Virus record (IMG/VR): IMGVR_UViG_3300042863_000390
Coordinates: 2,286 to 66,285 of that record
Source of the DNA: a virus
DNA: 64,000 nt
Strand: one strand, 5' to 3'
Numbering within the stretch: position 1 is the first letter of the stretch; every line of letters begins with the position of its first letter. This document shows, in pieces, positions 22,801 to 46,222 of the stretch. The translations under genes and the position numbers were made by a program. A model generated the notes under the pieces. That model had not been told where the DNA came from. It did no database searches and was given only the letters and a program-made list of their open reading frames with translations.

Positions 22801-25800
22801 AGGCAATTGAAAAGGAAAAAACCACTCCTGCTATTGAAACTAAGAAAGAAAAAGAAATCTCTGAAGAAGACGATGTAAAAGAAATTATAAAAACTGAAAG
22901 AGGTTCCGTATCTTCTGATAGAGTGCAACAAATATATAATGATAAAGGATTAAACGGAGCGGCTGAAATTATAAAACTATTTAAACCAATTACAAATAAG
23001 ATAGTTGACAAACGTAGAGATGCTCCAGGTTTTGACAAAGAATTATTAACTGATGAAATAGAAACAGGCGTTGGTGGTATTTTAGATTTAATAAAAAAAT
23101 ACAACCCAGAATCTGGTATTCCATTAGCTGCTTATATTAATAAGTATTTACCTGTTAGAGCAATCGCTACTTCAAGAAGGATACTAGATCAACAGTTTAA
23201 AAAAGATGTAACTGAAGAGAAAGGCTTAATGGCTGAAGAAACAGTTATAGAGACAAAAGAAAAGCCAAAATATAAGAATGTATTAGAATCAAAAGTTTTT
23301 GAGCCAGAGACGCTTAAAACAATCAATGATAAGATATTAACCGTTGTTAGAACTTTAAAATCAAAGATTGATGAGCCAATATCATTAAATAGGACAGTTA
23401 CGCCTATAATTGCTGAAATCAGAGATGAAATAGGTAAACTTGTTGATATTGATGTTAAAACAGCAATGGGTGGCAAAAAAGATGATCAACTTAAAAATTG
23501 GTTATTAAAGAATAAAAGATATATTCTTGAAAATATGACTACAACCTGGTTAATGGGTAAAGATGGTCAAGGAGGAATGCCTATTGCTATTCAAAAACAA
23601 ATTGATGGTAGATTTGTAAATTATCCTGAATGGGTTGGTAAAAAAATAGACAGAGAAAAAACTTCAACTGATAATGCGGGTAGAACTTCTGGGGCAGAAT
23701 TGGTTAGAAGATTGCCTAATGTAGTAAATAACATTTCTGATGCAGACTACCTTGCACAAGTTTTAGCCGCAGATGGGAATCCATTAAGAGGTAGGAAAGA
23801 GTCTTTAGCAAAAGCTATTGCTGAGGAATCATCGTTTGATATTATCAATGACGATTTAGCAAATGAAGGAGTTATATACGATGCTTTAGAAACAAATCAA
23901 AAAAGATTAGGTGTTGAGCAATTAAATAACATTGCTGTTGAAATAAATAAACAAATAGAAAGAGGTAATGTTAAATTTTCTGCAAGATTAATTAAAGGAT
24001 TTGAGATATCTAAAGATAAATTAATTAAAGATATAATAGAAGCCCCTACAGCAGAGGATGAAATAAATGTAATTAATAATTGGATAGCCAGTGATGGTAG
24101 ATCGCTGCGCACAATGGCCTCTAAAATAGGCCCTGGTGAAATATATAAATTAAGAATTAATAGAGGTTTATTTGAAAATATATTATTACCTATAATTAAG
24201 ACTGCGTCAAAATTTGAAGGAAAAATTGGAGAAGATTCTTATAAGTTAGAACCTGTTAAAGGGGGTGAATCGATATATTTTGGAGAAGAAAAAGTTCCAT
24301 TATGGGCAGATATTAATAGAATAAAAAGCAATTGGGAGTCTAGTGTTTCAATAATAGATGATGAAGCTTTAAAAGCAACTAATGATCTTATTAATATTGT
24401 AAAATATTTTAAAGACAATAACTATACTAAAGAAGATTTTGAATCTTATGTTGAATTACTTAAATTTGATCAAAGGGGATTATTCCGCAAAGTTTCTAAA
24501 GCGGGTCTTGGGGTACTAGGATTAACAAAAAAACAAGAACCTCGTTTAGAACATAATGCACCTGCTCAAACAATTGTTGATTATACTATAGATTTATTTG
24601 ACAATAAAATAACTGAACAGGAATTTAGAGCATTTATAGATGAATCAAAAGTAAATTTAGTACCTAAGGCACTGGAAGACATACTACCTGGTTATATTCA
24701 AGGTGAAAACAGAATGTATGATCCAAAAGCGGTTTCATTTATTAAAGACTTAATAGACAAAGGATATAAAGTTGTAGGTCTAGAAAAAGAATACGGAACA
24801 AAAGCAAACTTTAATGCTCTTGTTAAATTAGCAAAATCAGGTATTAATTCTAAAGAGTCCTTACAAAACATATATAATAATGATGCGGTAACAAAGTCTT
24901 TAATTTCATTTTCTAAACCGGCAAAAGGTATTTCTGTTTTTGATTTTGATGATACTGTTGGTATAACTAAAAGTAATGTGCTATACACAATGCCGGATGG
25001 GACAAAAGGAAAATTAAATGCTGAAGAGTTTGCAAAAGACGGTGCAAGACTATTGGAAGAAGGAGCTCAATTTGATTTTTCTGAATTTAGTAAGGTTACT
25101 AATGGTAAGCCAGGGCCTATGGTCGAAAAAATGAAGAAAATGATTGGCAAGTTTGGCCCAGATAATTTCTTTATACTTACTGCAAGACCTGCGAATTCAG
25201 CTGGTCCTATTCATGGATTTTTATCTTCAATAGGCATAGACATCCCATTAGAAAATATAACTGGATTAGGAAATAGCACAGCTCAAGCAAAAGCTGATTG
25301 GATGATAGCGAAAGCAACGGAAGGTTATAATGATTTTTACTTCGCTGATGATGCAATTCAAAATGTAACTGCCGTTAAAGATGCACTAAATGTTCTTGAC
25401 GTTAAGTCAAAAATTCAACAAGCAAAAATTAAGTTTAGTAAAACTATATCTCCAGAATTCAATAAGATAATTGAAGAGAATACTGGCATGGCAGACTACA
25501 AAGTATTCTCAGATATTGTTGCAAGAAGAAGAGGAGCTGACAAAAACAAATTTGATTTCTATGTTCCACCATCCGCCGCTGATTTTGAATTATTATTATA
25601 TAAATTTATAGGTAAAGGAAAACGCGGAGAAGAACAACAAAAATTCTTTTCAGATGCTTTATTAAAACCTTATGCAAATGGTAATGATTTAATGGATGCA
25701 GCAAGACAATCGATTAAGAAAGATTACAAAGCATTGACAGATCAATTCCCTGATATTAAAAACAAAATTGAGAAGTTAACGCCAGATGGGGACTTTACAT

Positions 25801-27650
25801 ATGACCAAGCAATACGTGTTGCAATGTGGACAGAAGAGGGCGTTGAAATTCCTGGTATATCGCAAAGAGACCAAAAGAAGTTAACTGAGCTTGTAAATAA
25901 TGATCCTGAGTTAGCTGCGTTTAAACAAGGGTTAATAGTTACTGGTAGACAAGGTAAAGGATGGGTTACTCCAACTGAATTCTGGGATGCAAGTACAATT
26001 ATATCTGACTTACATAACTTAACCGAGGGAGAAGGCAGAAAGAAATTCCTTGCTGAATTTATTGACAATGCCCAAGAGATGTTTGGTAAATGGGAAAATG
26101 GAAAACTTGTTGGTCCTAATATTAATAAGGTTGAAGCAGTATACGGTACAAATGTAAGAGAAGCTATTGAGGATGTCCTATGGAGAATGACTACTGGTAA
26201 AAATAGAAGTCAAGGTAAAGATAAAGAAACTTCTAGATGGGCTAACTGGGTAACTGGATCTACTGGAGCTATTATGTTCTTGAATGTAAGATCTGCTGCA
26301 TTACAATTAATTGGGGCAGTAAACTTTTTAAACTTAAGAGATAATAATCCTGTAGCTGCTGCTGCTGCATTTGCAAATCAAAAACAATATTGGACTGACT
26401 TTGCGCGTATTTGGAATTCAGATAAAATGAAAGAAAGACGTGGCGGATTAAAAGAGGATGTTGCTGCCGCAGAGATTGCTAATGCTGCTGCTGGTAGTAA
26501 AAATAAAGTTGGTGCTGTCTTATCTTACTTATTAAAAATAGGTTACACGCCAACACAAATGGCAGATAGTTTTGCTATTGCTTCAGGAGGTGCTCCGTTC
26601 TACAGAAATAGAATAAAAAGTTACTTAAAAGAAGGAATGACTGAACAAGAAGCTGAGACTGCAGCATGGAATGACTTTACTAAAGTATCAGATGAAACAC
26701 AACAGTCGGGTGATCCAAGAGATATATCAAAACAACAAGCGAGTGCAGCTGGTAGATTGCTATTAACATTCCAGAATACTGCGATGCAACAATCGCGTAT
26801 CGTTAAGAAGGCTATATTAGATCTTAAGAATAGACGTGGTAATGATAAAACAAACGTAGCCAAGATTGCTTATTATCTAGCAATTCAAAATACAATGTTT
26901 GCCGTACTACAACAAGGTTTATTTGCTGTTGCATTTGGTTATGATGATGAGGATAAAGAAAAACCTGAAAAAGAAAAGAAACTAGAAGAGAAATTAGTTG
27001 ATGTTACAGATGGTGTTATTGATACTATATTAAGAGGGACAGGATTTACTGGTGGTATTATAGCTACTCTAAAGAATATGGCTAAAAAGTATTTAGAAGA
27101 GAAAGATAAAAAATTTAAAGCTGACTATGCTAAAGTAATGTTGGAAGGCGCAAATATTTCTCCTCCAATTGGATCTAAACTTAGAAAGCTATATTCAGGA
27201 CTGCAACAAACTAAATTTGAAAAAGATCTTATAGAAGAAAGAGGGTGGGGAGTTATGCAAGACGGAACAGTTCACTTAGGGCCAATGTATGGAGTGAGCG
27301 GTAAAGTTGTTGAATCATTCACAAACGTACCAATGGATCGTTTAGTTACTAAAATAGAGAATGCTTCTCAAGCAATGAATACACAAAATGAAGCTTGGCA
27401 AAGAGTTATGGTTGGATTAGGATGGTCTCCATATAGTATTGGAATCGAAGAATCCACTGGAGATCAAGCTATAAGAGCTAAAGCTAAAGAAGTAAGAAAA
27501 GAGGAGGGTAAAATTAAATCAAAAGAAACTCGCCAACGTACTAAAGATTCTATTAATGCTTTGCCTATTGCAGAAAAAATAAAATTGCGACAAGAAAAAA
27601 GATTAAAAAGAAGAGAAGAAAGATTAAAGAAACGTAGAAAAATGGGTTGA
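19893..27650 (+). CDS. Giant polyvalent internal virion protein (hydrophobic segment, HExxH zincin, sigma70 region-2-like domain, HAD phosphatase)
   Basis: 2585 aa; HEFLH at 22071; GILDLIKKYNPESGIPLAAYINKYL near 23076-23150; HAD motifs VFDFDDT, ILTAR, K, FADD at about 24930-25360. Confidence 0.7.
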   Translation: MPIYIYNGTEFSEEDVIAKAREKDMDLESYINKFGIKKVEDKMPGKPKPVVKKDAVATVKSTASKSAEPSSASPVNPFGKPKTIDPLGLEKLKSAPAPKAKKETVFNPKKFANEVSSQANEGFYTKGERNMLLNNTKQKELEKKTVDKVFNDFDNLNYSSLSPEKKLELDDTAVKILTANQKPGTPYKFTTNDIELKSQEILAKASDKKKSIEGASYLDRVISGIAKTTNYVGESFASMPETIYRVFALPQNAVAAITGNKELEATPEKFKKQTGLNNPVMDYFVDEQKRIQKVNNIFDNANYDSQSITENLKTGNYSDAFKLLGVGLAESAPISIGMMAGGANMSIGKLAAASTAVMAGPEIRQQKEANPDLFEIENVMNGFGMAGAESVFSAIGEGSIGKVYKDIIKKEGLENGAKIFKDGLISTYQTALKKYGVPAAMLGEGLEEVATTVTQNLISKKPAFENTMDSFIAGVGGGAVWGSPITLQKSIVGFKDGLTVHKINTELKTGNASNLKEVFNPNTPITETQIKIASIPNSYKILTSQIDNDIAADNMTAEEGDKIKMEYAATYHAANQLKPLELPNTTSVEVANLLKNRDQLTRIIKNVNDPTLTTFQLDKVKEINSRISELTSAVAKEKMEGTISADIERTAIASQALEVEEEIELPNLNTANDVINYLSKNTDLDKDTINEAANKYGAFIPLSNGKEALIINKEEAAMDQVVTTGQHEFLHKLIYKAVKDNVDLQKKIGADLYNHIENYIGTETLNNTEFKQRYDTYKLDFEDTKFELEGKITKAKEYFNKGLILQDQYDQTLSQANSLIAKAEGKYLEETLPLLSEALTKGDIKYNETFFTKIGDILRRIFQKYGLSKVKFNTGKDVFDFVRDYNKSFEKGQFTKAFKSLAKEGAYKGSIAKGNAPVRTAIKTEVKKSQGLSQVETLKNQLKEIQDNEFDYDPDDFDQQVANLQGKIKKAIEKEKTTPAIETKKEKEISEEDDVKEIIKTERGSVSSDRVQQIYNDKGLNGAAEIIKLFKPITNKIVDKRRDAPGFDKELLTDEIETGVGGILDLIKKYNPESGIPLAAYINKYLPVRAIATSRRILDQQFKKDVTEEKGLMAEETVIETKEKPKYKNVLESKVFEPETLKTINDKILTVVRTLKSKIDEPISLNRTVTPIIAEIRDEIGKLVDIDVKTAMGGKKDDQLKNWLLKNKRYILENMTTTWLMGKDGQGGMPIAIQKQIDGRFVNYPEWVGKKIDREKTSTDNAGRTSGAELVRRLPNVVNNISDADYLAQVLAADGNPLRGRKESLAKAIAEESSFDIINDDLANEGVIYDALETNQKRLGVEQLNNIAVEINKQIERGNVKFSARLIKGFEISKDKLIKDIIEAPTAEDEINVINNWIASDGRSLRTMASKIGPGEIYKLRINRGLFENILLPIIKTASKFEGKIGEDSYKLEPVKGGESIYFGEEKVPLWADINRIKSNWESSVSIIDDEALKATNDLINIVKYFKDNNYTKEDFESYVELLKFDQRGLFRKVSKAGLGVLGLTKKQEPRLEHNAPAQTIVDYTIDLFDNKITEQEFRAFIDESKVNLVPKALEDILPGYIQGENRMYDPKAVSFIKDLIDKGYKVVGLEKEYGTKANFNALVKLAKSGINSKESLQNIYNNDAVTKSLISFSKPAKGISVFDFDDTVGITKSNVLYTMPDGTKGKLNAEEFAKDGARLLEEGAQFDFSEFSKVTNGKPGPMVEKMKKMIGKFGPDNFFILTARPANSAGPIHGFLSSIGIDIPLENITGLGNSTAQAKADWMIAKATEGYNDFYFADDAIQNVTAVKDALNVLDVKSKIQQAKIKFSKTISPEFNKIIEENTGMADYKVFSDIVARRRGADKNKFDFYVPPSAADFELLLYKFIGKGKRGEEQQKFFSDALLKPYANGNDLMDAARQSIKKDYKALTDQFPDIKNKIEKLTPDGDFTYDQAIRVAMWTEEGVEIPGISQRDQKKLTELVNNDPELAAFKQGLIVTGRQGKGWVTPTEFWDASTIISDLHNLTEGEGRKKFLAEFIDNAQEMFGKWENGKLVGPNINKVEAVYGTNVREAIEDVLWRMTTGKNRSQGKDKETSRWANWVTGSTGAIMFLNVRSAALQLIGAVNFLNLRDNNPVAAAAAFANQKQYWTDFARIWNSDKMKERRGGLKEDVAAAEIANAAAGSKNKVGAVLSYLLKIGYTPTQMADSFAIASGGAPFYRNRIKSYLKEGMTEQEAETAAWNDFTKVSDETQQSGDPRDISKQQASAAGRLLLTFQNTAMQQSRIVKKAILDLKNRRGNDKTNVAKIAYYLAIQNTMFAVLQQGLFAVAFGYDDEDKEKPEKEKKLEEKLVDVTDGVIDTILRGTGFTGGIIATLKNMAKKYLEEKDKKFKADYAKVMLEGANISPPIGSKLRKLYSGLQQTKFEKDLIEERGWGVMQDGTVHLGPMYGVSGKVVESFTNVPMDRLVTKIENASQAMNTQNEAWQRVMVGLGWSPYSIGIEESTGDQAIRAKAKEVRKEEGKIKSKETRQRTKDSINALPIAEKIKLRQEKRLKRREERLKKRRKMG

Positions 27651-31834: not shown

Positions 31835-32602
31835 TTAAATGGCCACTTTTGCTGAAATTACTGGACCGTGTTTATAATTTATTAAGGTTAATGCTCCGTT
31901 TTTGTAAAAGTACTGTGGCGACTGAAAAGTTTCCTGATCAAGATATTTGTGTATAGCATCGTGTTGATTATTGTAAACGTGGGCATCTACGATTTGTATG
32001 TCAATGAAGTTAGCTTGTAAAGCGACTTTGTCAGCAACATACAAAAGTATTTTTGAAAACAAAGCTACATCATAAGGTATGCCTAAGAACATATCGCCAG
32101 ATCTTTGTACAACAAACATATTAAGATCTAATCCATCAACGAAAAATTGAAAATACAAATAACAAGGAGGCAATGCCATTTGATTTGTTTGAGCCGGATT
32201 CCATAAACTTATAATGTGTCTACGGCTGTCTGGATCCTCAATTAAGTCATCAATAAGCATTTGCATCTGATCTATATTTTGATCGTTAAAATTGCGCATT
32301 TGATGCCCATATACAGGACCAAGATCGCCATTCTCATCTGCCCAAGCATCCCATATCTTTACATTAGCATCTCGGAATCTTTGTACATTGGTTTCGCCAT
32401 TCATAAACCATTCGAATTCTGTATCGAAAGTTTTTTGAAACATTTTTCTACCAGTTAATAAAGGGAAACCTTCTTTAAGATCTATTCTTAAGTTAGCATT
32501 AAAAATAGAATTGCAGCCCACCCCAGTACGGTCATTACGCTTAACCCCGCTAGCAAGACACTTATATAGTAATTCTTTGTATTGTGATTCATACTTTGTC
32601 AT
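31835..32602 (-). CDS. thyA: Thymidylate synthase
   Basis: DRTGVG, LGPVYG.Q.R, SRR, ALPPC, QRSGD.FLG.P, DAHVY. Confidence 0.92.
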   Translation of the reverse strand: MTKYESQYKELLYKCLASGVKRNDRTGVGCNSIFNANLRIDLKEGFPLLTGRKMFQKTFDTEFEWFMNGETNVQRFRDANVKIWDAWADENGDLGPVYGHQMRNFNDQNIDQMQMLIDDLIEDPDSRRHIISLWNPAQTNQMALPPCYLYFQFFVDGLDLNMFVVQRSGDMFLGIPYDVALFSKILLYVADKVALQANFIDIQIVDAHVYNNQHDAIHKYLDQETFQSPQYFYKNGALTLINYKHGPVISAKVAI

Positions 32603-33480: not shown

Positions 33481-35177
33481 GGCATCAAATCGTTATTAAT
33501 ATTAACAGGTTCGTGAGGTATAAAACAACCGGAAGCTGGATCCCATTTGAAATGACATTCAGCACCATTCTCTCCAAGATTCTGAAACTTACATTTAAGC
33601 ACTTTTACTTTAACGGTTTTATCTTCATAGTTTCTATGAACTAATAATCCGTGATAGGAAGCATCGTACCATTCACCACCACCTTTAATGTTGTACATAG
33701 TAGGCTCTTCAATATTACCCTTAGCATCTTTATACATTTTTGTAGGGTGGGCAACAACCATTACCAGTACATCGTACTTTTTAGCAAAGATTTCAATCTT
33801 ACTTAGATATTCTAATGTATAAACATTAACATCACCTGAAGCATCGTTGTCTCTTACTTTGTTGAATGGATCAATAACTAAGCATTTAATACCTTTACGT
33901 TTAACTAGCTCAGCTCCTTTTCTAAGTACTGAATCTAAAGTATAACGTTCCATATCAATAAAGAAGTAATTGTCGTTAACATGATCGGCAACTTGATTCC
34001 ATTTGTCACTATTAATATCAGCAACAGTAGGCATACCTTGCCAAGTTTTGCGCATTAACTTGTGAGCATGTAAATATGTAGGAGTATTCTCAGGTGATGC
34101 ATATGCAGTCTTCCAACCGTACTTTTCATTATAACCAATAATCATTTGATCTACAAAGTCAGATTTTCCCGAACTAGGGATACCAGTAACAGTAATAAAC
34201 TGGCCAGTATACGTAGAAAAAATACTGTCAAAATTATCCAGGCCAACTTGAAACCCAGGTTTGAAACCGTTTCTAACAAAATCGGTAACCTCATCTTCAA
34301 TGTCTCTAAACGTTGTAACATTTTCAAGTGGAACTGGCTTAGCCCTTGAAATTCTTTGGGATAATGCTTCTTTTCCATATTTTAATAAGTATTCATTTGC
34401 GTCTTTACATTCTTCAAACGATGCTAAGTAACAAATTTCAGATCCTAACCTTCTTACCAGCTCAGCCTGTAAAGCTTGCCCGGCAGAGTCGGAATCAACA
34501 GCAATAATGATTCTATCTTTATCATCAAAATAGTCAATACAATTATCAAGATATTCCAGGTTATTTGTACCCAATGTAGCGCCATTAGGCACAGATATTG
34601 CATTAGTAATTCCAGCCTCATGTAATGCAAGGACATCCATTTCGCCTTCCACAATAACACAATACTCGAAACCAACAATACTATTAATATTATAAAATAC
34701 TTTTTCAGCCCCTTTATAAAGTTTAAAGTTTTTACGCCCATCTCTGTATTTTACATTTGTAAGTTGATCGCCAACATAATAATTAAAGTTGATTACATTT
34801 TCTTGTTTACCTGTTTGAGGCATGAACTCTTGGCCTTCAGTAACGCTAAGCTCGTTTAATGTTTGTTCTGAAATACCACGTGTTGCAAACCATTCAACAA
34901 CTTTTGAGCTTGGAGGAGTGTGTATAGCAACGTCAGGTTTAACGTATACTTTTTCGCTTTTGCCTTTGCGTTGGTATGTATGTAGTTGAAAAGTTTTATT
35001 ACAGTTATGGCAAGTACCTATACCTCGTTCCCAATCGTAAGAGGCACACTTTGCTTTCTCATTCTGAGGTTTTCTATCTGGCGAGCATATTGGACAAATG
35101 CCTTGAGACTTACCTTCTTCAAGCTTGTATTGATTGAATTGGTCAATCAAAAAACCATTTATCTCTATTGTTTGCAT
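33468..35177 (-). CDS. Primase-helicase (T7 gp4/Twinkle-like)
   Basis: Zn finger CPIC...CHNC, TOPRIM VEGEMD/DSD, KDANE, Walker A GIPSSGKS, LVIDP, VAHP. Confidence 0.92.
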   Translation of the reverse strand: MQTIEINGFLIDQFNQYKLEEGKSQGICPICSPDRKPQNEKAKCASYDWERGIGTCHNCNKTFQLHTYQRKGKSEKVYVKPDVAIHTPPSSKVVEWFATRGISEQTLNELSVTEGQEFMPQTGKQENVINFNYYVGDQLTNVKYRDGRKNFKLYKGAEKVFYNINSIVGFEYCVIVEGEMDVLALHEAGITNAISVPNGATLGTNNLEYLDNCIDYFDDKDRIIIAVDSDSAGQALQAELVRRLGSEICYLASFEECKDANEYLLKYGKEALSQRISRAKPVPLENVTTFRDIEDEVTDFVRNGFKPGFQVGLDNFDSIFSTYTGQFITVTGIPSSGKSDFVDQMIIGYNEKYGWKTAYASPENTPTYLHAHKLMRKTWQGMPTVADINSDKWNQVADHVNDNYFFIDMERYTLDSVLRKGAELVKRKGIKCLVIDPFNKVRDNDASGDVNVYTLEYLSKIEIFAKKYDVLVMVVAHPTKMYKDAKGNIEEPTMYNIKGGGEWYDASYHGLLVHRNYEDKTVKVKVLKCKFQNLGENGAECHFKWDPASGCFIPHEPVNINNDLMPWEK

Positions 35178-38442: not shown

Positions 38443-38446
38443 AATC

Positions 38447-38898: not shown

Positions 38899-39515
38899 AA
38901 TGATCGATTTAATAATTCTTTTTCTTTTTTAAGTTCATTGCTCATGTTTCTATGTATTGTTCGTGACGTACAACCAAAATGATCAGCAAGGTTTTTAATT
39001 GTAATTTTTTTGCCGAGGTCATTCGTGTATAGCATTGCTTCGTAAATGTCAGATTCACTAACTTTCTTAGTTTTGCCAATCATCTTTCCTACTATAGATA
39101 ACTTCTCAGTGACAGTTAACTTACAGTTATCCTTAAATATAATCTTACGAGTTTTATTATAAGGAGGTTCATCAAGATCTTTTAAAGATACTTCGTACAT
39201 CATGCTTTGTAATAGCTGTTCACTTACATTGAACGTTACAAAACCATTATTCTTTTCACATATAAACCTAGCGATAGCTTCAAATGCATTCTGATCCATA
39301 TCAGGATTTAAATACCATATAACATATAAATGCCACTTTAAAGACTTATATGTTGGAATTTTAGCTTTACTCCTGAATAATTCATAACATTCGTTTGTAC
39401 CTGATTCATAGAAGTTACCCCATTCAAACTCTTCACTTGGTTTATCATTAACTGGTCCACGCCTATATATCACTCGTTTTTTATTTAAATATTCTAGGTT
39501 TCTACTATGCGACAT
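38895..39515 (-). CDS. HTH DNA-binding protein, possible replication initiator (PriCT/HTH-like)
   Basis: C-terminal HTH ITIKNLADHFGCTSRTIHR; start codon lies inside a conserved palindrome. Confidence 0.55.
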   Translation of the reverse strand: MSHSRNLEYLNKKRVIYRRGPVNDKPSEEFEWGNFYESGTNECYELFRSKAKIPTYKSLKWHLYVIWYLNPDMDQNAFEAIARFICEKNNGFVTFNVSEQLLQSMMYEVSLKDLDEPPYNKTRKIIFKDNCKLTVTEKLSIVGKMIGKTKKVSESDIYEAMLYTNDLGKKITIKNLADHFGCTSRTIHRNMSNELKKEKELLNRSL

Positions 39516-39554
39516 TAGCTTGCTATTTTATTATATTAATTAGCTAACGTCACA
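39508..39554 (-). promoter_or_regulatory. Quasi-palindromic site, copy C
   Basis: TGTGACGTTAG-N24-GCTAATGTCGCA on minus strand. Confidence 0.75.
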
Positions 39555-39574
39555 TTTATTCACATTAGCATTTT

Positions 39575-40248: not shown

Positions 40249-40263
40249 AATTTGATTTGATTG

Positions 40264-40307
40264 GTTACATTAATATTATCATTCTTTAATCGTGTTTAGA
40301 CTGTAAG
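40264..40307 (-). promoter_or_regulatory. Class-I 44-bp promoter-like motif, copy 2
   Basis: Same consensus and spacing; upstream of DenV-like/HTH/sigma operon. Confidence 0.7.
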
Positions 40308-40431
40308 CAGCTAATCTTTTATAATGCTTATGTAAACGGTTGTCTCTACAATAAGAGCATGCTCCATTGTTTCTGCATGTTTTATCAAACACTCTTGATT
40401 TTCTGTACGCTTGTTTTACTGTTCTGCTCAT
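40279..40431 (-). CDS. Small basic Cys-rich protein (50 aa, not in ORF track)
   Basis: MSRTVKQAYRKSRVFDKTCRNNGACSYCRDNRLHKHYKRLAAYSLNTIKE, translated by hand. Confidence 0.6.
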   Translation of the reverse strand: MSRTVKQAYRKSRVFDKTCRNNGACSYCRDNRLHKHYKRLAAYSLNTIKE

Positions 40432-40445
40432 AATCTTTAATTTAG

Positions 40446-40511
40446 TAGTCAGGCAAGGACTCGAACCTCCTCCGCTTTATCAGTGCGGTGCTTCCATTCA
40501 GCTACCTGACT
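40446..40511 (-). tRNA. Truncated tRNA-like element (Ile-GAT-like loop)
   Basis: Acceptor AGTCAGG/CCTGACT+A, T-loop GGTTCGAGTCC, loop CTGATAA; only 66 nt, variable loop almost absent. Confidence 0.55.
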
Positions 40512-40578
40512 TATAGTTAATTACCACCACTAAGCGTGTAACTGGGTGGATTACTGAACTCACGCCTTATTAACTATA
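40512..40578 (-). ncRNA. Predicted pseudoknotted small RNA (RNA-C)
   Basis: Outer stem TATAGTTAAT/ATTAACTATA, inner stem AGGCGTG/CACGCTT, loop CCACC complementary to downstream GGTGG. Confidence 0.5.
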
Positions 40579-40584
40579 TATATT

Positions 40585-40675
40585 TGGAACTAAAAGGGGA
40601 ATCGAACCCCAAAACCCGTCGGTTGTGACAATGCCCGGAGACTGAAACAGATCCATTTAGCCCAGCACTTAGTTC
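40585..40675 (-). ncRNA. tRNA-like element with non-canonical central part
   Basis: Acceptor GAACTAA/TTAGTTC, T-arm GGGG-TTCGATT-CCCC, 3' end TTCCA; no canonical anticodon arm. Confidence 0.5.
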
Positions 40676-40676
40676 T

Positions 40677-40774
40677 TGTTAATCCGAGGACCGGTTATTT
40701 TCTTTATCCCATATTTCGGTTGCAACCAGCTAGCTAAGCTTGGTATGACTCCACGCAACCCCGAGTGATTAACA
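40677..40774 (-). ncRNA. Predicted multi-stem small RNA (RNA-B)
   Basis: Closing stem TGTTAATC..CGGGG/CCTCG-GATTAACA; inner GCTGGTT/AACCGGT and TGG/CCA hairpins. Confidence 0.45.
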
Positions 40775-40782
40775 TTTTGAAC

Positions 40783-40873
40783 AGTTCTTATTTAACGAAC
40801 TCACTGCTCCCTGAGTCGAACACGATTGCCAGCTGCTCGAGCACTACATGCATGAACAACCGTGTATAGCAAC
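40783..40873 (-). ncRNA. Predicted structured small RNA (RNA-A)
   Basis: ACACGGTTG/CAATCGTGT stem, ACTCA/TGAGT hairpin whose loop GAGCA can pair with TGCTC, AGTTC/GAACT hairpin. Confidence 0.45.
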
Positions 40874-41100
40874 TACAGTTTCTTAAATCTGTATTGAGCT
40901 AATACGTATTTGTTTAAGAATTTACCTTTAGAAGGGGCTTCTCTTAAACCATTCATTACATGGTTAGGTACGTTTAAATATTCGTACGCTTTACCGCTAA
41001 TGAATAGAACAATTAATTTTTCAACACTTGGATAGTAAGCGACTTCAGAAATTGCGCTACTGTCAACCGTTAGTGATTCCACTAAGTTTACATTTGTCAT
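40873..41100 (-). CDS. KTSC domain protein
   Basis: VDSSAISEVAY...LIVLF.SG..YEY..VP........APSKGKF.N. Confidence 0.85.
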   Translation of the reverse strand: MTNVNLVESLTVDSSAISEVAYYPSVEKLIVLFISGKAYEYLNVPNHVMNGLREAPSKGKFLNKYVLAQYRFKKL

Positions 41101-41110
41101 AGTTATTATA

Positions 41111-41443
41111 TTAGATAGTTAAAAAATATTCTTCATCAAATTTATCTTTGAAACCTACATGCTTGATACCGTATACTAATATATCAAATTGATCAGAGCT
41201 AATAGGTATGCATTCTTGTTCAAATACAGAACATAAATTTTCTACAGTAGCCACAACATTACTTAATAATTTATAATTAGTTTCAAGTTCAGCAACAATG
41301 GTAGGCTCAATCAAATCATGATAGCTACCGCTGCTTTCTGTTAATTGTAATAATGTATAACCACGTAGGTTTTTTAGATAATCCATTACTTCTTGGGCTG
41401 AATAAGGATTGTTAAGCAGCCCGATATTGATTGTAAAAGTCAT
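41111..41443 (-). CDS. Hypothetical early protein
   Basis: 110-aa ORF; INIGL, EPT.V, QECI motifs. Confidence 0.6.
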   Translation of the reverse strand: MTFTINIGLLNNPYSAQEVMDYLKNLRGYTLLQLTESSGSYHDLIEPTIVAELETNYKLLSNVVATVENLCSVFEQECIPISSDQFDILVYGIKHVGFKDKFDEEYFLTI

Positions 41444-41455
41444 ATTATTTATTTA

Positions 41456-41707
41456 TTATTGGTTATATATATCGTAATAATCACTCATTGTATTTATTAA
41501 TTCTCTTCCGTATGCAGTATGAAAACCATAACTATGTGTATAATTATTTATTGGTGCATTTTCTAATAACAAATACAACATATCAAATTCATTCTGATCA
41601 AACTTTTTACTCGCTCTTGTTATAGCTTTAGCCAAGGCACTACAACTGTGTCGAGGCGTTTGATTAAGGGTATTTTCTATATAATCTTTTACTTGCTTAG
41701 CCTTCAT
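41456..41707 (-). CDS. Hypothetical early protein
   Basis: 83-aa ORF. Confidence 0.6.
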   Translation of the reverse strand: MKAKQVKDYIENTLNQTPRHSCSALAKAITRASKKFDQNEFDMLYLLLENAPINNYTHSYGFHTAYGRELINTMSDYYDIYNQ

Positions 41708-42062
41708 TTTCTTCAGGATTAAGTTTAAAATAGTCAGTTAATTCGCTAACGAATGATCTTGTAAATTGGTATGCATCGAATGAAGTATTTAACTCAAGAG
41801 TAAAACTATTGCCATATGATCCGCATAATTCAGGCTCACTCATTATAAATTCTTCAAAGTCAAAGTTATCTAATAAATCTTCAACAGAATCAGTAATATA
41901 TTTAGGCGTCAATCCAGAAGGTTTTAATTCTGATACTTCCATTAATACATTAGTACGTAGTGCACTTAATAAGTTAACAACATCATCTTTAGAAAAAATA
42001 CTTGGGTATGCATCTACAGTTTTTGTAATTTCCTGATCGAACAGGTTGTTTATATTTTCCAT
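41697..42062 (-). CDS. Hypothetical early protein
   Basis: Acidic 121-aa ORF directly after promoter copy 3. Confidence 0.6.
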   Translation of the reverse strand: MENINNLFDQEITKTVDAYPSIFSKDDVVNLLSALRTNVLMEVSELKPSGLTPKYITDSVEDLLDNFDFEEFIMSEPELCGSYGNSFTLELNTSFDAYQFTRSFVSELTDYFKLNPEENEG

Positions 42063-42079
42063 TTTATTATATTTTATTG

Positions 42080-42123
42080 GTTACATTTATATTATCATTT
42101 ATTGATCGTATTCAGACTGTAAG
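42080..42123 (-). promoter_or_regulatory. Class-I 44-bp promoter-like motif, copy 3
   Basis: Same consensus and spacing. Confidence 0.7.
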
Positions 42124-42320
42124 ATTCCATTTTCTTCAACAACTTCGCAGAATAAGGTGTATAGCAAACTTTCTATTTGCTGCAATCTATGTAATTGATG
42201 TACGGTTAAAAGCGATCTTTCTATTCTAAAATCCGTATTTAGGTTTTCTTCAATTGTTAATGTTCCTTCAAAGACTGCTAGCTTAATTAAGTCTAGTTCT
42301 TTATCGCTTAGTACTCTCAT
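42099..42320 (-). CDS. Hypothetical early protein
   Basis: 73-aa ORF. Confidence 0.5.
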   Translation of the reverse strand: MRVLSDKELDLIKLAVFEGTLTIEENLNTDFRIERSLLTVHQLHRLQQIESLLYTLFCEVVEENGILQSEYDQ

Positions 42321-42468
42321 ATATTTTTATTTCTAATGCATTGTTAAACACTCGATCGTATGCTTCTGCCATTTTATTATTATCGGCATAGTGTACAGTC
42401 TTTACTATTTCGCGCATCCACACTTCAAATGCTAATGCTTCTTGATGAGCTAATCTTTCTTTTGTCAT
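42301..42468 (-). CDS. Hypothetical early protein (55 aa, not in ORF track)
   Basis: MTKERLAHQEALAFEVWMREIVK... fills the gap in the operon. Confidence 0.5.
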   Translation of the reverse strand: MTKERLAHQEALAFEVWMREIVKTVHYADNNKMAEAYDRVFNNALEIKIYESTKR

Positions 42469-42470
42469 AA

Positions 42471-42713
42471 TTAATCTGTTAAAACTATTCTTAATGATCC
42501 ATCTTCGTTTTCGCCGGTAAAATTACCAGTTGATTCATTGTATACTAATACTATATCGAAAGCTTTAGCTACTTTAACGGCTGCAATACCAATCTCGCCT
42601 TGTAATGTTAATTCGCCGCGTCTAGGATAATACTGTATACTATAGAATACTTCAAACTCTACTTGCTCATTTACATATCTTAATTTTTCTAATAACCACA
42701 TTCTTCTATCCAT
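42471..42713 (-). CDS. Hypothetical early protein
   Basis: 80-aa ORF after promoter copy 4. Confidence 0.6.
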   Translation of the reverse strand: MDRRMWLLEKLRYVNEQVEFEVFYSIQYYPRRGELTLQGEIGIAAVKVAKAFDIVLVYNESTGNFTGENEDGSLRIVLTD

Positions 42714-42732
42714 CTTGTTATATTTTTTATTT

Positions 42733-42776
42733 GTTACATATATATTATCAATTGTTAATCGTATTTTGATTGTAGG
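42733..42776 (-). promoter_or_regulatory. Class-I 44-bp promoter-like motif, copy 4
   Basis: Same consensus and spacing. Confidence 0.7.
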
Positions 42777-42995
42777 CTACTCAATTACCTTCATAAAATC
42801 ACCATTTTTATTATATAATATGGTTAATTCAAACTTATGGTCTAGGTGACATATCATTTCGTTGATGTTAGCAAATGATAAGGCCATTGAGAATTGATCA
42901 GGAGCGGCGGTTAAACCTTCCGCTTGAGCAAGCGTGTATAGCAAACCGACGTCGAGTTGGTTACTATTACGCATTTTAATATACTCTGCTTTCAT
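42777..42995 (-). CDS. Hypothetical early protein
   Basis: 72-aa ORF. Confidence 0.6.
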   Translation of the reverse strand: MKAEYIKMRNSNQLDVGLLYTLAQAEGLTAAPDQFSMALSFANINEMICHLDHKFELTILYNKNGDFMKVIE

Positions 42996-43186
42996 TATTT
43001 TTGTTTTAAGGTTAATGCTTTAATCTTTTCGATTGTTTCAGATACAACCATGTCTACATAATCCGCAGTCATCAAAGCATTTTTACCTTGTGCTTCAACT
43101 TCTTTAATATCTTTCTTCCATTCATTCCTAATTGCATTCAATCCTTCGATTACTAAATAACTTTCAAATCCGTTTAATTTTTTCAT
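42995..43186 (-). CDS. Hypothetical early protein
   Basis: 63-aa ORF. Confidence 0.6.
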   Translation of the reverse strand: MKKLNGFESYLVIEGLNAIRNEWKKDIKEVEAQGKNALMTADYVDMVVSETIEKIKALTLKQK

Positions 43187-43187
43187 A

Positions 43188-43436
43188 CTAATATTTATCT
43201 TTAATTTCTGTTAATGTTAAGTGATAGTGATTCCAATATCCGCTTCTACTGTGTGCTTTTGCTTTTGCACCAAAGGATGATTTCATTTTAGTCTTGATTT
43301 GTTTATAGTCATTACTATTAAAACTTTTACACAAGCCATCAATATTCACCGCATTTATACGGTTCGCTCTATTACGTGCTTTCTTTTCTTCAAGATATTG
43401 ACACGCTTCTTTCATATTGTTTGCTATTGTTATCAT
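43188..43436 (-). CDS. Hypothetical early protein
   Basis: 82-aa basic ORF. Confidence 0.6.
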   Translation of the reverse strand: MITIANNMKEACQYLEEKKARNRANRINAVNIDGLCKSFNSNDYKQIKTKMKSSFGAKAKAHSRSGYWNHYHLTLTEIKDKY

Positions 43437-43437
43437 A

Positions 43438-43620
43438 TTATTTTATTAAAGTTAAACCTAATTCATTTGCCACATAATTCACATGCTTTGTAGTTGTTCT
43501 TGACCACCAACCCAATACTTTAAGGGTATCGCCATCTCGTCTTGCAACGATTGTAGAGTAACTCCATACGTCATTACCAACCATTCTTAAATTGTCTTTG
43601 TATCTATTGAACTTTCTCAT
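43438..43620 (-). CDS. Hypothetical early protein
   Basis: 60 aa, SYSTIVA...WSRTTTKHVN motif. Confidence 0.6.
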   Translation of the reverse strand: MRKFNRYKDNLRMVGNDVWSYSTIVARRDGDTLKVLGWWSRTTTKHVNYVANELGLTLIK

Positions 43621-43621
43621 A

Positions 43622-43804
43622 TTACTTTTTGATTATATAAGTTAAACCTTTAAAATTAAACCACTCACTTGTGCCGTCGGATTCTTTATTAGCATCGTAG
43701 ATAAAACCAAAACTTGGGGGTAGATCGCCGATTAAGTAAGGTGTGTATAGCAAACCGTTTAATAAGATTTGATTGTACTTTAGGAATTTAATTGAATTTG
43801 TCAT
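43622..43804 (-). CDS. Hypothetical early protein
   Basis: 60-aa ORF after promoter copy 5. Confidence 0.6.
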   Translation of the reverse strand: MTNSIKFLKYNQILLNGLLYTPYLIGDLPPSFGFIYDANKESDGTSEWFNFKGLTYIIKK

Positions 43805-43819
43805 AGTTAATTTGTTTTA

Positions 43820-43863
43820 GTTACATTTATATTATCAATTTTGAATCGTATTTATTTTGTAAA
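43820..43863 (-). promoter_or_regulatory. Class-I 44-bp promoter-like motif, copy 5
   Basis: Same consensus and spacing. Confidence 0.7.
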
Positions 43864-43870
43864 TACTTTG

Positions 43871-43942
43871 TAGTTAGGGTAGGAATCGAACCTACATTGC
43901 GGGCGCCTGATCGGCCTGAGTTTACCATTACTCCTCCTAACT
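43871..43942 (-). tRNA. tRNA-like element with defective anticodon arm
   Basis: Acceptor AGTTAGG/CCTAACT+A, D-arm GAGT-AATGGTAA-ACTC, T-arm GTAGG-TTCGATT-CCTAC; positions 27-43 do not form a canonical stem-loop. Confidence 0.6.
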
Positions 43943-43949
43943 CCTATTA

Positions 43950-44177
43950 TTAATCTTTGTACTTAACATCCGCCATGAATCTTTCAATTATACCGGCTTC
44001 AAAAGCTTCTTGTTCTTTATAGTATTTTGCACGTACTATTCTATCTAATAACCATTCAACAATCACTTCATAATCCGTGTGATGTTTAGTCATACCGTTT
44101 TCTATAATCGCTTTATAATATGTGCGCTCAGGAAAGTACGGGTTTTTATACTCTATAATTTCATAATCTCCTATCAT
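43950..44177 (-). CDS. Hypothetical early protein
   Basis: 75-aa ORF. Confidence 0.55.
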   Translation of the reverse strand: MIGDYEIIEYKNPYFPERTYYKAIIENGMTKHHTDYEVIVEWLLDRIVRAKYYKEQEAFEAGIIERFMADVKYKD

Positions 44178-44179
44178 AA

Positions 44180-44347
44180 TTAATCGTTATATATTTCAAA
44201 TTCAACATCATCAAAGTCGTTAGCGTCCAACACTATTTCTTCACCACAATACATTTCTTCCGCTAATAATCTTGCATCGACTTCATCATCGGCTTCAACT
44301 TCAATTATCTTACTTAAATACTCGGTTATTTTTACTTGATATTTCAT
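44180..44347 (-). CDS. DpnD/PcfM-like small acidic protein (55 aa, not in ORF track)
   Basis: MKYQVKITEYLSKIIEVEADDEVDARLLAEEMYCGEEIVLDANDFDDVEF. Confidence 0.65.
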   Translation of the reverse strand: MKYQVKITEYLSKIIEVEADDEVDARLLAEEMYCGEEIVLDANDFDDVEFEIYND

Positions 44348-44363
44348 ACTTTACTTTTTAATA

Positions 44364-44480
44364 TTAATCTTCATTTTCTCCATCCCAATCGGTAAACTCG
44401 CAATGTTCTAAACAATCACCACACAACTCATCATATATATGGTGTCTACTCGCGCCACAACAATCACTATATTCTTCCAT
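44364..44480 (-). CDS. Small zinc-finger protein (38 aa, not in ORF track)
   Basis: SDCCGA...CGDCLEHC. Confidence 0.6.
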   Translation of the reverse strand: MEEYSDCCGASRHHIYDELCGDCLEHCEFTDWDGENED

Positions 44481-44484
44481 ACTT

Positions 44485-44784
44485 TTATTTATTTAAATTA
44501 AACAATCTTTCACACTTTCTATTACAGTACTCAAAGTGAGCCCATATCGCCGCATTAATTTTACCAACTTCGTCGTTTCTCGCATCTAAATACGGTTCAA
44601 TCGAGTGATAAAAGTCGGTTAACTCTTCGTCAATATAATTAAAATCTCGTTTAAACATATCAAGTTCATCACCTTGCATGTAATTTAACCCAATTATATC
44701 TTCATCTTCTTTAATGATTAAAATATATCTATCATCGCCATCACACCACACTATTTCTCTACTTTCTACTACTTTATAATTCAT
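44485..44784 (-). CDS. Hypothetical early protein
   Basis: 99-aa ORF. Confidence 0.6.
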   Translation of the reverse strand: MNYKVVESREIVWCDGDDRYILIIKEDEDIIGLNYMQGDELDMFKRDFNYIDEELTDFYHSIEPYLDARNDEVGKINAAIWAHFEYCNRKCERLFNLNK

Positions 44785-44808
44785 ATTGTATTTTTTTACT
44801 TATTAATA

Positions 44809-44907
44809 TTAGTTTCTTAGGGCCATAGAGGCGTATTTCGCTTGAATTAAGAACTCTTTTTTTACTTTTAATAATACCACTCTAAAGGCACTTGAATAAC
44901 GTCTCAT
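44809..44907 (-). CDS. Micro-ORF (32 aa)
   Basis: MRRYSSAFRVVLLKVKKEFLIQAKYASMALRN directly after promoter copy 6. Confidence 0.4.
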   Translation of the reverse strand: MRRYSSAFRVVLLKVKKEFLIQAKYASMALRN

Positions 44908-44931
44908 ATTTACTTGTTTTAGTTTGTTTTT

Positions 44932-44975
44932 GTTACACTTATATTATCATTTCACAATCGTATTTTTATTGTAAA
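44932..44975 (-). promoter_or_regulatory. Class-I 44-bp promoter-like motif, copy 6
   Basis: Same consensus and spacing. Confidence 0.7.
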
Positions 44976-45080
44976 GAGGTTGAACTCTATTTGCTTACTT
45001 TTAACTAAGAGCAGGTATTACAGAGTATCCCTTTGTTTGCAAGCCTTTTCAACCATTTTACCATCGATTATTGTTATTTT

Positions 45081-45124
45081 GTTACATATATATTATCAAA
45101 TTGAGTTCGTGTTGATATTGTAAG
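45081..45124 (-). promoter_or_regulatory. Class-I 44-bp promoter-like motif, copy 7
   Basis: Same consensus and spacing. Confidence 0.7.
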
Positions 45125-45203
45125 CACTTTTTGAGTGAAAATAGAAAATAGTTAACTATAGTGTAGGACGGAGTCTACTCTTTCGACAGTGTTTCAGTGC
45201 CAG

Positions 45204-45247
45204 ACTACACATATATTATCAAATTACCGTCGTAATGTTATTGTAAG
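45204..45247 (-). promoter_or_regulatory. Class-I 44-bp promoter-like motif, copy 8
   Basis: Same consensus and spacing. Confidence 0.7.
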
Positions 45248-45314
45248 GGGTTTTTAGGTGGATGCTATACGCGTTGCTATACACTTTGTGTAAGGTTCCG
45301 ATGGAACACTTTGT

Positions 45315-45371
45315 AAAAGTGTGACATTAGCTCATTAAGTTAATAATATAGTAGGCTAACGTCGCACTTTT
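45315..45371 (+). promoter_or_regulatory. Quasi-palindromic site, copy A
   Basis: AAAAGTGTGACATTAG-N24-GCTAACGTCGCACTTTT. Confidence 0.75.
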
Positions 45372-45373
45372 TA

Positions 45374-45574
45374 TTATAGGTTTTCTATCTCTTTTTTAAC
45401 TTCGTTCCAATTTATATCCTGACCGTAGCATTCGTATTTACTGCATCCGCTTTTTTCTTTAATTATCTCAGTAACCACTATCAATGCGCATTGTTTAGCA
45501 TCTAACATTAAATAATGTTTTGATTCATAATTAAACTTATTTACTAACTCTTCTGCTTTTTCTTTTGGTGTCAT
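45374..45574 (-). CDS. MTPKEKA-type small protein
   Basis: MTPKEKAEELV.KF...AKQCALI.V.EI...W.EVKKEIENL. Confidence 0.65.
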   Translation of the reverse strand: MTPKEKAEELVNKFNYESKHYLMLDAKQCALIVVTEIIKEKSGCSKYECYGQDINWNEVKKEIENL

Positions 45575-45586
45575 AATCTTATTTGT

Positions 45587-45630
45587 TTTACATTATTATT
45601 ATCATTATTCACTCGTATTTAGATTGTAGA
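45587..45630 (-). promoter_or_regulatory. Class-I 44-bp promoter-like motif, copy 9
   Basis: Same consensus and spacing. Confidence 0.7.
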
Positions 45631-45636
45631 AGAGAC

Positions 45637-45987
45637 TTATTCAGCCTCAACTACTTCTAAAACCTCAACCGTAGCCAAATGTCTTACATTACTTGGCATA
45701 TCGGTAGATTGCGACCAATATTCACGTTTAATCCAACATGGCATAAGGTTTAACTTTGGCAACATAACTTTTAGAACCTCGTCATGATTGTAAGTTATAC
45801 GTTGATTCTTGTTATTCACGAATGTGATTACTTGATTACGACCCAACCAAGACTTTCTTACTACAAAGTTAGCTCTTTCGATTGGTGGATAGATTAAAGC
45901 CAAGTCTTCAGGAGACAGTTTAGCAATGGCTTCAGCGATTAATTCTTTAGATGATTTTACAACTTCGTTTGTTACTTGATTTTTCAT
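45637..45987 (-). CDS. Hypothetical protein, first gene of the minus-strand arm
   Basis: 116-aa ORF after two tandem promoter motifs. Confidence 0.65.
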   Translation of the reverse strand: MKNQVTNEVVKSSKELIAEAIAKLSPEDLALIYPPIERANFVVRKSWLGRNQVITFVNNKNQRITYNHDEVLKVMLPKLNLMPCWIKREYWSQSTDMPSNVRHLATVEVLEVVEAE

Positions 45988-46015
45988 ATTATTATATTTA
46001 ATTTGTTATTACTTA

Positions 46016-46059
46016 GTTACACTTATATTATCAATTAGACTTCGTATTCTTATTGTAAG
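46016..46059 (-). promoter_or_regulatory. Class-I 44-bp promoter-like motif, copy 10
   Basis: Same consensus and spacing. Confidence 0.7.
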
Positions 46060-46086
46060 AACTTCTTAACCATTTGGTGCTTGTTG

Positions 46087-46130
46087 CTTACATATATATT
46101 ATCAAATACCATTCGTACTCAGACTGTAGG
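46087..46130 (-). promoter_or_regulatory. Class-I 44-bp promoter-like motif, copy 11
   Basis: Same consensus and spacing. Confidence 0.7.
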
Positions 46131-46133: not shown

Positions 46134-46222
46134 TGCTATACGCAAATGCTATACATTTGCTATACGCTTCGCGTGTTACCACGCTCCACGTATCGGTCTC
46201 CATACGCATCACGTATCGGTTC
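46134..46222 (+). repeat. TGCTATAC x3 and CACGTATCGGT x2 short direct repeats
   Basis: Seen at 46134, 46147, 46158; CACGTATCGGT twice within 46187-46222. Confidence 0.8.

Follow-up and report, generated by a model that had tools for sequence, protein, structure and literature searches.

The stretch analysed here (the window) comprises 64,000 nucleotides, bases 2286-66285 of the 66,285-bp virus record IMGVR_UViG_3300042863_000390, and represents nearly the entire genome of an uncultured 66-kb lake phage whose DNA was found again in lake-water metagenomes. It carries a ten-base word, TGCTATACAC, that is inherited together with the gene of a 91-amino acid (aa) protein of predicted HNH-like fold, which adjoins the largest array of the word. 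The word is real, conserved, polar and evenly spaced, and together with this small protein it probably constitutes a site-specific nicking or marking system. As a tentative first choice, we propose that the decamer copies would be recognition sites of the 91-aa protein, probably nicked on one particular strand as in phages tf and T5. On balance we believe that the protein reads the motif; that it also cuts there is a good deal less certain and rather doubtful.

In the proposed mechanism, the 91-aa protein would bind the decamer as an HNH-like accessory protein and act on one strand at each site, leaving localized single-strand interruptions. The sites follow one another evenly along the mRNA-sense strand of the early arm, about 1 kb apart at first and more widely with distance, while tandem sites of opposite polarity occupy untranscribed spacers beside two early promoters. 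Placing the sites on the sense strand of a heavily transcribed arm may spare the template strand.

Occurrence, polarity and spacing of the decamer

The genes of the window form two arms. The minus-strand early arm runs from 46.0 to 27.7 kb, and the plus-strand arm starts at 46.6 kb, wraps round the record, whose ends overlap, and ends at 27.65 kb. A first-pass annotation, made by eye, had listed nine exact copies of TGCTATACAC, seven on the minus and two on the plus strand, together with a few plus-strand variants. All nine were found at the claimed coordinates (Table 1), the relaxed pattern TGCTATACRY yields 13 sites (0.51 expected) by adding the plus-strand copies at 45263, 46134, 46147 and 46158, and no copy of either pattern had been overlooked. 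Well under one exact copy had been estimated to occur by chance; in dinucleotide shuffles the mean was 0.19 and the maximum 2, and none of 100 shuffles reached nine. Over 240 distinct instances, information is confined to T-GCTATAC-A-C, with no second block, no -35 box and no conserved flanks, and near-variants with one or two mismatches are not enriched. The full-text matches listed for the decamer in the literature were primer lists only.

As claimed, the coding copies of the window use two frames: four minus-strand copies read (L/M)LYT and two read (V/D)AIH, the copy at 40862 being intergenic. In the open reading frames (ORFs) of 11 motif-rich genomes, defined below, the two main frames account for 41 and 44 copies and the third (CYT) for two, and 87 copies are sense as opposed to 15 antisense; of 165 distinct copies in relatives, 11.5% fall between genes. 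A peak at 120-140 nt before the next gene (30 of 165 copies) is a product of orthologous sites, and a fixed distance was rejected. The suggested constraint at the nucleotide level was upheld by permuting synonymous codons in 40 early-arm ORFs, which gave on average 0.27 in-ORF sense copies (maximum 3) compared to the six seen. With proteins and codon usage held fixed in this way, none of 2000 shuffles reached six; therefore the constraint acts on nucleotides. Conservation at synonymous sites, which the first-pass annotation had named as a check, is only modest at single sites. Third-position conservation at three orthologous sites is 0.70, 0.71 and 0.64 inside the motif and 0.63, 0.54 and 0.61 outside it, and the motif is kept at the same place in 12 of 20, 11 of 32 and 4 of 11 distinct orthologous sequences. 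Site number and spacing are kept while individual sites turn over. The primase-helicase (33468-35177) possesses a linker past its zinc-binding part (residues ~75-95); across 80 relatives both the length and the sequence of this linker are hypervariable, and it repeatedly hosts the decamer, in another register in L053, L064 and L068 and as the reverse complement in L055.

Copies had been said to become denser toward the early-arm start, and the gaps counted from 43743 agree with this (809, 777, 1295, 1837, 4105 and 2971 bases); the reported flip of polarity was located between 43743 (minus) and 45263 (plus). Of the eight single copies, seven fall in the 18-kb early arm. Spacing between sense copies is even, about 1 kb where the arm starts and 2-8 kb farther along; for instance, the gaps in relative G001 are 1108, 1106, 1102, 1173, 1022, 772, 1741 and 3492 bases. 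The mean absolute natural logarithm of the ratio of adjacent gaps equals 0.44 (n = 42, nine genomes) versus 1.386 for a Poisson process, and 20,000 simulations never gave so low a value. The arm limits in this test were set by hand, and two genomes were excluded: G136, a near-copy of the window, and G139, in which the arm wraps round the contig end. In the clade of the window, polarity diverges from ~44-45 kb, and late-arm copies share the polarity of the arrays (24979 in the window, 56709 in G136, 15808, 63293 and 54148 in G001, 50826 in G005 and 58309 in G142). In G151, G135 and G154, late copies lie on the early-arm strand, antisense to the late-arm genes, and no single model in hand accounts for both patterns.

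Relatives were collected by primase (249 IMG/VR loci found, 80 kept), and the 8-mer form of the motif was counted about four times as often on the primase strand as on the other strand (a sum made by hand). In the whole records of 40 relatives, TGCTATACR occurs 7-28 times in 21 records, 3-6 times in eight and 0-2 times in eleven, the reversed control occurring 0-4 times. Twenty-one whole relatives and the window were divided into 11 motif-rich and 11 motif-poor genomes; the motif-rich genomes are not all independent, because the window and G136 as well as G143 and G144 are near-duplicates. On a primase tree of 22 rows, the motif state needs at least four changes, two of which are forced by well-supported branches, and the motif is a patchily inherited accessory system. 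Its layout is kept in relatives, with single sense copies along the early arm and tandem pairs or triples of opposite polarity abutting early promoters at the divergent junction. No near-variant of the decamer is enriched in motif-less relatives. The top k-mers of these relatives are coding repeats; L081 has a possible other word, GGTTATACA (four versus zero), and the top k-mer of G131 is a GC-rich coding repeat of 20-23 bp, unrelated to the decamer (12 copies at 973-3874 and 64005-64971, which would read GNVGIGT), whose host gene is probably tail-fibre-like.

The 91-aa protein and its homologues

ORFs of the window of up to 700 aa were screened for co-occurrence with the motif by BLAST clustering followed by iterated searches with hidden Markov models. 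Among the ORFs screened, the 91-aa protein is the best tracker of the motif, being present in 10 of the 11 motif-rich genomes and in one of the 11 motif-poor ones. Both exceptions lie at contig ends. The G143 contig is cut at the place of the gene, and in G147 the gene starts at base 7 of a contig that therefore lacks the motif-bearing stretch of the early arm. Across the 40 records, the protein was found in 18 of the 21 with at least seven copies and in one of the 11 with at most two (Fisher P = 4e-5, kinship ignored); the three motif-rich records that lack it are contigs of 82-96% completeness. When only records at least 95% complete were counted, the protein was present in 15 of 16 with at least seven copies and in none of six with at most four. 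Three separate sister contrasts agree (G154 versus G133; G151 versus G153, G156 and G134; G142 and G135 versus G149).

Several other families differ between the two classes of genomes. An ATP-dependent DNA ligase family (L171:14900-15751 in G131) occurs in seven motif-poor genomes versus one motif-rich genome, which we count in favor of the proposed nicking system. A 99-aa family (44485-44784, no family match) is present in eight motif-rich genomes, missing from G142, G151 and G154, and in no motif-poor one, and the KTSC family in six versus none. Thymidylate synthase of the canonical type (31835-32602, Pfam E = 3e-74) is found in 10 of the 11 motif-rich genomes, while all 11 motif-poor genomes and G154 encode a divergent family member of 212-254 aa (partial match, Pfam E = 3e-25; for example L171:8467-9111 in G131), which could be a hydroxymethylase, implying modified DNA.

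The 91-aa protein is extremely basic and matches phrog_6437, a family of unknown function in PHROGs. Its 337 database homologues are all unnamed, and homologues in Cellulophaga phages Calle_1-3, phi38:1 and phi40:1 are annotated by similarity as 'structural protein'. Fourteen homologues (down to 39% identity) share the invariant residues Q14, L16, A20, K24, R27, D28, A32, K41, Q45, D58, H61, N72, R73 and K81, and D60 is nearly invariant. An AlphaFold2 model (mean predicted local distance difference test score, pLDDT, of 72.7) consists of two helices, a beta hairpin at 57-68 with predicted strands 57-60 and 65-68, and a short helix at 69-72. The model would place D60-H61 and N72 on a beta-beta-alpha finger that resembles the HNH (His-Me) type, for which the triads of Cas9 and T4 endonuclease VII offer a comparison. 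In the ESM Atlas, the nearest named clusters are HNH_3 and HNH (score 0.91), which we treat as a lead only. Profile comparison with the neighboring DUF5872 protein was negative.

Homologues of phrog_6437 also occur in two cultured phages, Maribacter phage Panino (E = 5.5e-18) and Cellulophaga phage phi38:1 (E = 1.8e-23). TGCTATAC is not enriched in either genome, and both carry a one-strand word, CACTATCA, that has the core CTAT in common with the decamer. In Panino this word occurs 24 times on the plus and twice on the minus strand (17 copies versus 0.66 expected in the first 20 kb). Fifteen copies lie 0.2-1.7 kb apart in the first 14 kb and nine more follow every 3-14 kb up to 69 kb, those at 28.5-56 kb remaining on the plus strand inside a 38-kb block of minus-strand genes (28-66 kb). 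In phi38:1 there are 15 minus-strand copies versus one on the plus strand (nine versus 0.54 expected in one 20-kb piece), 13 of them spaced 0.9-3.0 kb apart in the minus arm. The adjacent-gap statistic equals 0.56 in Panino (P = 1e-4) and 0.66 in phi38:1 (P = 0.003); the layout is even in both phages and graded in Panino. Another word accompanied by another homologue in the same layout is what would be expected of a co-evolving reader and its site. The Panino paper makes no mention of termini, nicks or motifs, and 'promoter' has zero occurrences in the search listing of the phi38:1 infection paper.

A bolder formulation, which we regard as speculative and rather unlikely, would make phrog_6437 a virion-carried minimal HNH-type writer of a ruler on the phage's own genome, composed of evenly spaced, strand-specific nicks or marks. 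The intervals of this ruler would widen from the early-gene end, and the protein would co-evolve with its word, TGCTATACAC in the lake phages and CACTATCA in phi38:1 and Panino, which are marine flavobacterial phages.

Genome setting and alternative readings

The features discussed here are collected in Table 1. The early arm begins with small early genes and a sigma-70-family factor (37368-38132), and it further encodes ERF, a PDDEXK nuclease, the primase-helicase, thymidylate synthase, a MazG-type protein and ribonucleotide reductase. The plus arm encodes terminase, portal, virion proteins, a tail fibre and a 2585-aa protein. By primase, the nearest cultured relative is Cellulophaga phage phi10:1 (42% identity). 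A GroEL-type chaperonin gene is located at 54940-56487 (PHROG E = 6e-136), and no DNA polymerase was found among the ORFs scanned in the window, though primase-helicase, ERF and nuclease are present.

Table 1. Decamer copies and associated features of the window
Feature	Position	Strand	Remarks
Single TGCTATACAC	24979..24988	+	Within 2585-aa late gene; same polarity as arrays
Sense copy	31949..31958	-	Thymidylate synthase gene; encodes DAIH
Sense copy	34920..34929	-	Hypervariable linker of primase-helicase; VAIH; re-created in other registers in other lineages
Sense copy	39025..39034	-	206-aa gene with C-terminal helix-turn-helix (HTH); MLYT
Intergenic sense copy	40862..40871	-	2 nt past stop of KTSC gene; directly before tRNA-like/structured RNA array of ~430 nt
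Sense copy	42157..42166	-	LLYT; 34 nt before upstream block of early promoter element 42097
Sense copy	42934..42943	-	LLYT; 72-aa ORF
Sense copy	43743..43752	-	LLYT; 60-aa ORF; opens the sense series
Tandem pair, 12-bp period	45263..45284	+	18 and 30 nt from upstream block of minus-strand early promoter element 45221
Tandem triple, 13- and 11-bp periods	46134..46167	+	Divergent junction; 6, 19 and 30 nt from upstream block of first early promoter element 46104
Gene of 91-aa basic protein (phrog_6437)	46673..46948	+	First gene of plus arm; candidate motif reader
Promoter-like elements, TGATAATA cores	46104, 46033, 45604, 45221, 45098, 44949, 43837, 42750, 42097, 40281, 35211	-	Span 35211-46128

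The architecture of the tandem triple is conserved in relatives. The tandem pair is followed by a short hairpin and then by a terminator-like long hairpin, and a unit of ~90 nt with a terminator-like hairpin follows 45275. A long-loop hairpin, AAAAGTGTGAC...GTCGCACT, is present in two copies (45314-45371 and 46565-46619), each after a decamer array, and a T-run follows the first copy. Three direct repeats of ~40 bp, AACCCCTTnCTTTATTATTTGTAAT, precede the late arm at 46424-46540. Rfam assigns 40446-40511 and 43871-43942 (minus strand) to tRNA, of which ARAGORN calls only the latter, with a two-base anticodon; a further ~350 nt of structured tRNA-like sequence (40512-40861, T-arm GGGGTTCGATTCCCC) is found after the KTSC-domain gene.

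Recognition combined with one-strand cutting was ranked first because the localized nicks of tf are the closest described thing, and a number of observations weigh against it. Nicking is suggested in this case by sequence comparison, which by itself cannot separate it from binding without cutting. G146 (98% complete) and G148 (96%) each have four copies of TGCTATACR and no phrog_6437 gene; the copies may be remnants in decay after the system was lost, or else contradict the pairing. The Fisher tests on co-occurrence ignore kinship, and the 91-aa gene lies only ~500 bp from the largest array, so that the co-occurrence is partly physical linkage. A 65-aa accessory family (39575-39772, no family match) tracks the motif nearly as well (10 of 11 motif-rich versus 2 of 11 motif-poor genomes). 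For the 91-aa protein, no Pfam HNH match was obtained at E <= 0.1 (a chance-level TPR_18 hit being the only one), no solved structure proved to be a neighbor (Foldseek gave nothing at E <= 0.001, VIA-align Z <= 3.3), and no homologue was found in tf, T5 or phiKMV. The copies of the window break the one-strand rule, with seven on the minus and six on the plus strand in two polarity domains. Two further observations fit a transcription start signal better: 8 of the 15 phi38:1 copies lie at most 30 nt upstream of an ORF start, and intergenic copies of the window precede structured RNA.

We consider it unlikely, yet worth weighing at length, that the decamer is such a transcription start signal, namely a compact promoter or promoter-proximal element read by host RNA polymerase redirected by a phage factor or by an unrecognised phage polymerase, the arrays being tandem promoters that fire away from the early promoters. 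Besides the phi38:1 copies near ORF starts, the excess of sense copies in the ORFs of the motif-rich genomes is in line with this, as are the non-coding RNAs after intergenic copies (the tRNA-like array after 40862 and the ~90-nt unit after 45275) and the back-to-back placement of arrays and early promoter elements in several distant relatives. The 30 nt 3' of intergenic copies also fold more strongly (-5.0 kcal/mol) than random 30-mers (-2.1) or the corresponding segments of in-ORF copies (-2.6). A sharp word with dense-then-sparse spacing is also characteristic of T7 class II and III promoters. However, 24 of 26 Panino copies occupy one strand, including those inside opposite-strand genes at 28.5-56 kb, the late-arm copies of G151, G135 and G154 are antisense to genes, the large majority of copies are not intergenic, and single sites turn over. 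No significant pairing was seen between the last four bases of the motif and a downstream arm (7 of 36 intergenic versus 4 of 60 in-ORF copies, P = 0.09). Four public runs labelled as RNA consist of contigs of relatives without starts, ends or strand, and we draw no claim from them; joints near motif copies in these runs most likely reflect chaining across relatives.

The early arm, moreover, already holds a promoter-like class of its own. Eleven intergenic promoter-like elements of ~44 bp, cTTACAaT-N5-aTACGA-N8-9-tTGATAATATA-N-TGTAAC, were found on its minus strand, 15-30 nt before start codons. They contain an extended -10-like TGaTAATAT, from which the -7/-33 consensus of Bacteroidota differs, and relatives without the decamer carry the variant TGGATAATA. 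The decamer as an extended -10-like promoter of the phage sigma factor was rejected, because the sigma factor and the 11-copy promoter class are also present in motif-less relatives; the sigma factor and the 206-aa HTH protein are core genes whose alignments have zero and one perfectly discriminating columns, respectively. In the excerpted text of a preprint on phage phi14:2, early transcripts are reported to lack a common motif.

No RNA polymerase was detected among the window ORFs scanned with PHROGs, Pfam and PDB sequences, which also counts against a transcription start signal. The 2585-aa protein that closes the virion arm (19893-27650) is conserved in all relatives at 34-70% identity and has no match in Pfam, PHROGs or PDB sequences. 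Two candidate roles for it were rejected. A sigma region-2-like domain is not supported, residues 901-1300 showing no Pfam match at E <= 10 and no BLASTP similarity to phage sigma. A crAss-like virion RNA polymerase would require a credible DFDxD motif, and the sole pattern match is DYDPD in an acidic stretch. Matching nothing, the protein may nevertheless hide a cryptic polymerase.

Slightly less probable still is non-catalytic binding, in which the same basic virion-type protein, or another accessory protein, binds the decamer without cutting. Such binding could organise or protect the first-entering arm, form a polar roadblock that ends early transcription, or regulate early promoters and the protein's own gene, and the arrays could be cooperative nucleation sites or origin-like iterons. 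The tandem periods of 11-13 bp correspond to about one helical turn, tandem copies keep matching distances (18/19 and 30 nt) to the upstream blocks of two early promoter elements, the protein is extremely basic with homologues annotated as structural, and the co-occurrence data are identical to those for nicking. The invariant D-H...N triad, in contrast, suggests that catalysis has been retained, and strict polarity and even spacing would be needless for simple binding.

The first-pass annotation had proposed an oriented site that is bound by a protein or controls an enzyme, acting in Chi/KOPS-like protection or translocation, primase or helicase loading, or antitermination. Nucleotide-level selection, orientation and reading by a protein or enzyme stood up to the analysis, but the versions that rely on host factors were not supported in the genomes searched. 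Very unlikely is an RNA-level signal, with the early transcripts themselves being read at the word, whether for boxA-like antitermination or by an endoribonuclease or an RNA-binding protein that has its site there. The sense polarity of the early arm and the boxA-boxB-like order of hairpins after some intergenic copies would fit, and UGCU.U..A loosely resembles the boxA consensus. The arrays, however, occupy spacers upstream of and antisense to early promoters, the Panino word keeps one DNA strand through the 38-kb block of opposite-strand genes, and the candidate reader resembles a DNA nuclease rather than an RNA-binding protein. Least probable of all is a Chi-like or KOPS-like word read by a translocase or exonuclease of the host. 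The polarity of the motif, with its flip, and its highest density toward one arm end would fit, but its counts are at chance level in the 126 Bacteroidota genomes examined, related phages at equal distance lack it, and phages of other flavobacterial hosts use another word with their own protein homologue. Per genome, 121 members of the phylum contain 0-18 copies of TGCTATACAC and five candidate metagenome-assembled Bacteroidota genomes contain 1-12, about as many as of the reversed control, and raised counts sit on binned phage contigs.

Significance and comparison with known systems

The pairing of motif and protein is widespread in phages of Flavobacteriia and, as far as literature searches reach, is not in print. 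Even graded spacing combined with strand polarity offers a measurable design rule, and phi38:1 and Panino are cultured phages in which nicking, binding or promoter activity could be tested directly. Phages whose genomes carry site-specific nicks were described decades ago, first T5 and later phiKMV-like phages and tf, and no enzyme behind such localized nicks is named in the literature searched. If our proposal is true, phrog_6437 would to our knowledge be the first enzyme family named for them, and the cultured phages would provide a model for the function of nicks in DNA entry, topology or transcription-replication coupling. Even if the copies were promoters or binding sites, they would form an unusual accessory cis/trans system that co-evolves and runs through coding sequence, using synonymous and linker positions.

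Chi (RecBCD/AddAB) and KOPS (FtsK) are likewise short and oriented, and they too change polarity at defined points of the replicon. In contrast to them, the decamer is phage-specific, ten bases long, evenly spaced, inherited with a phage protein gene and not enriched in the Bacteroidota genomes. Origin iterons, clusters of direct repeats at helical phasing that an initiator binds beside an AT-rich region, may be comparable to the arrays of 11-13-bp period at the divergent junction, but no initiator was identified here and dispersed polar copies in ORFs would be atypical.

T7-type promoters are nearly identical to one another, closely set in class II and widely set in class III, and some lie within genes. 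The decamer copies are also near-identical, co-oriented with early and middle genes, dense then sparse, and in part tandem near a putative origin region; unlike T7-type promoters, however, most copies lie in ORFs with no fixed distance to start codons, those of Panino ignore gene orientation, and no phage RNA polymerase was found. Late transcription in T4 is enhanced by a nick, the clamp being loaded at a nick in the non-transcribed strand. Such enhancement would explain why breaks might be confined to the non-template strand of a transcribed arm; this is pure analogy, no clamp, clamp loader or gp33/gp55-type genes being identified here.

The closest comparison is with the nick sites of tf, T5 and phiKMV. 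In the excerpted text of the tf report (PMC3517423), the nick word 5'-TACT/RTGMC-3' is a sharp 9-bp sequence with 14 sites on one strand, 11 of them in the left half, in a genome of two convergent gene arms with terminal repeats, and the function of the nicks is called unknown. The system of the window differs in its two polarity domains and in the tandem arrays by promoters, its nicking is putative, its spacing is regular and graded in a way that the tf excerpts do not describe, and its candidate enzyme phrog_6437 has no homologue in those phages. As far as the tf excerpts go, the likeness extends to sharp asymmetric words of 8-10 bp with 10-28 copies and almost no near-variants; to clustering toward the early genes of podovirus-type genomes that have terminal repeats and two convergent arms; and, in part, to strand specificity, which is strict in Panino and phi38:1 and follows the arms in the window.

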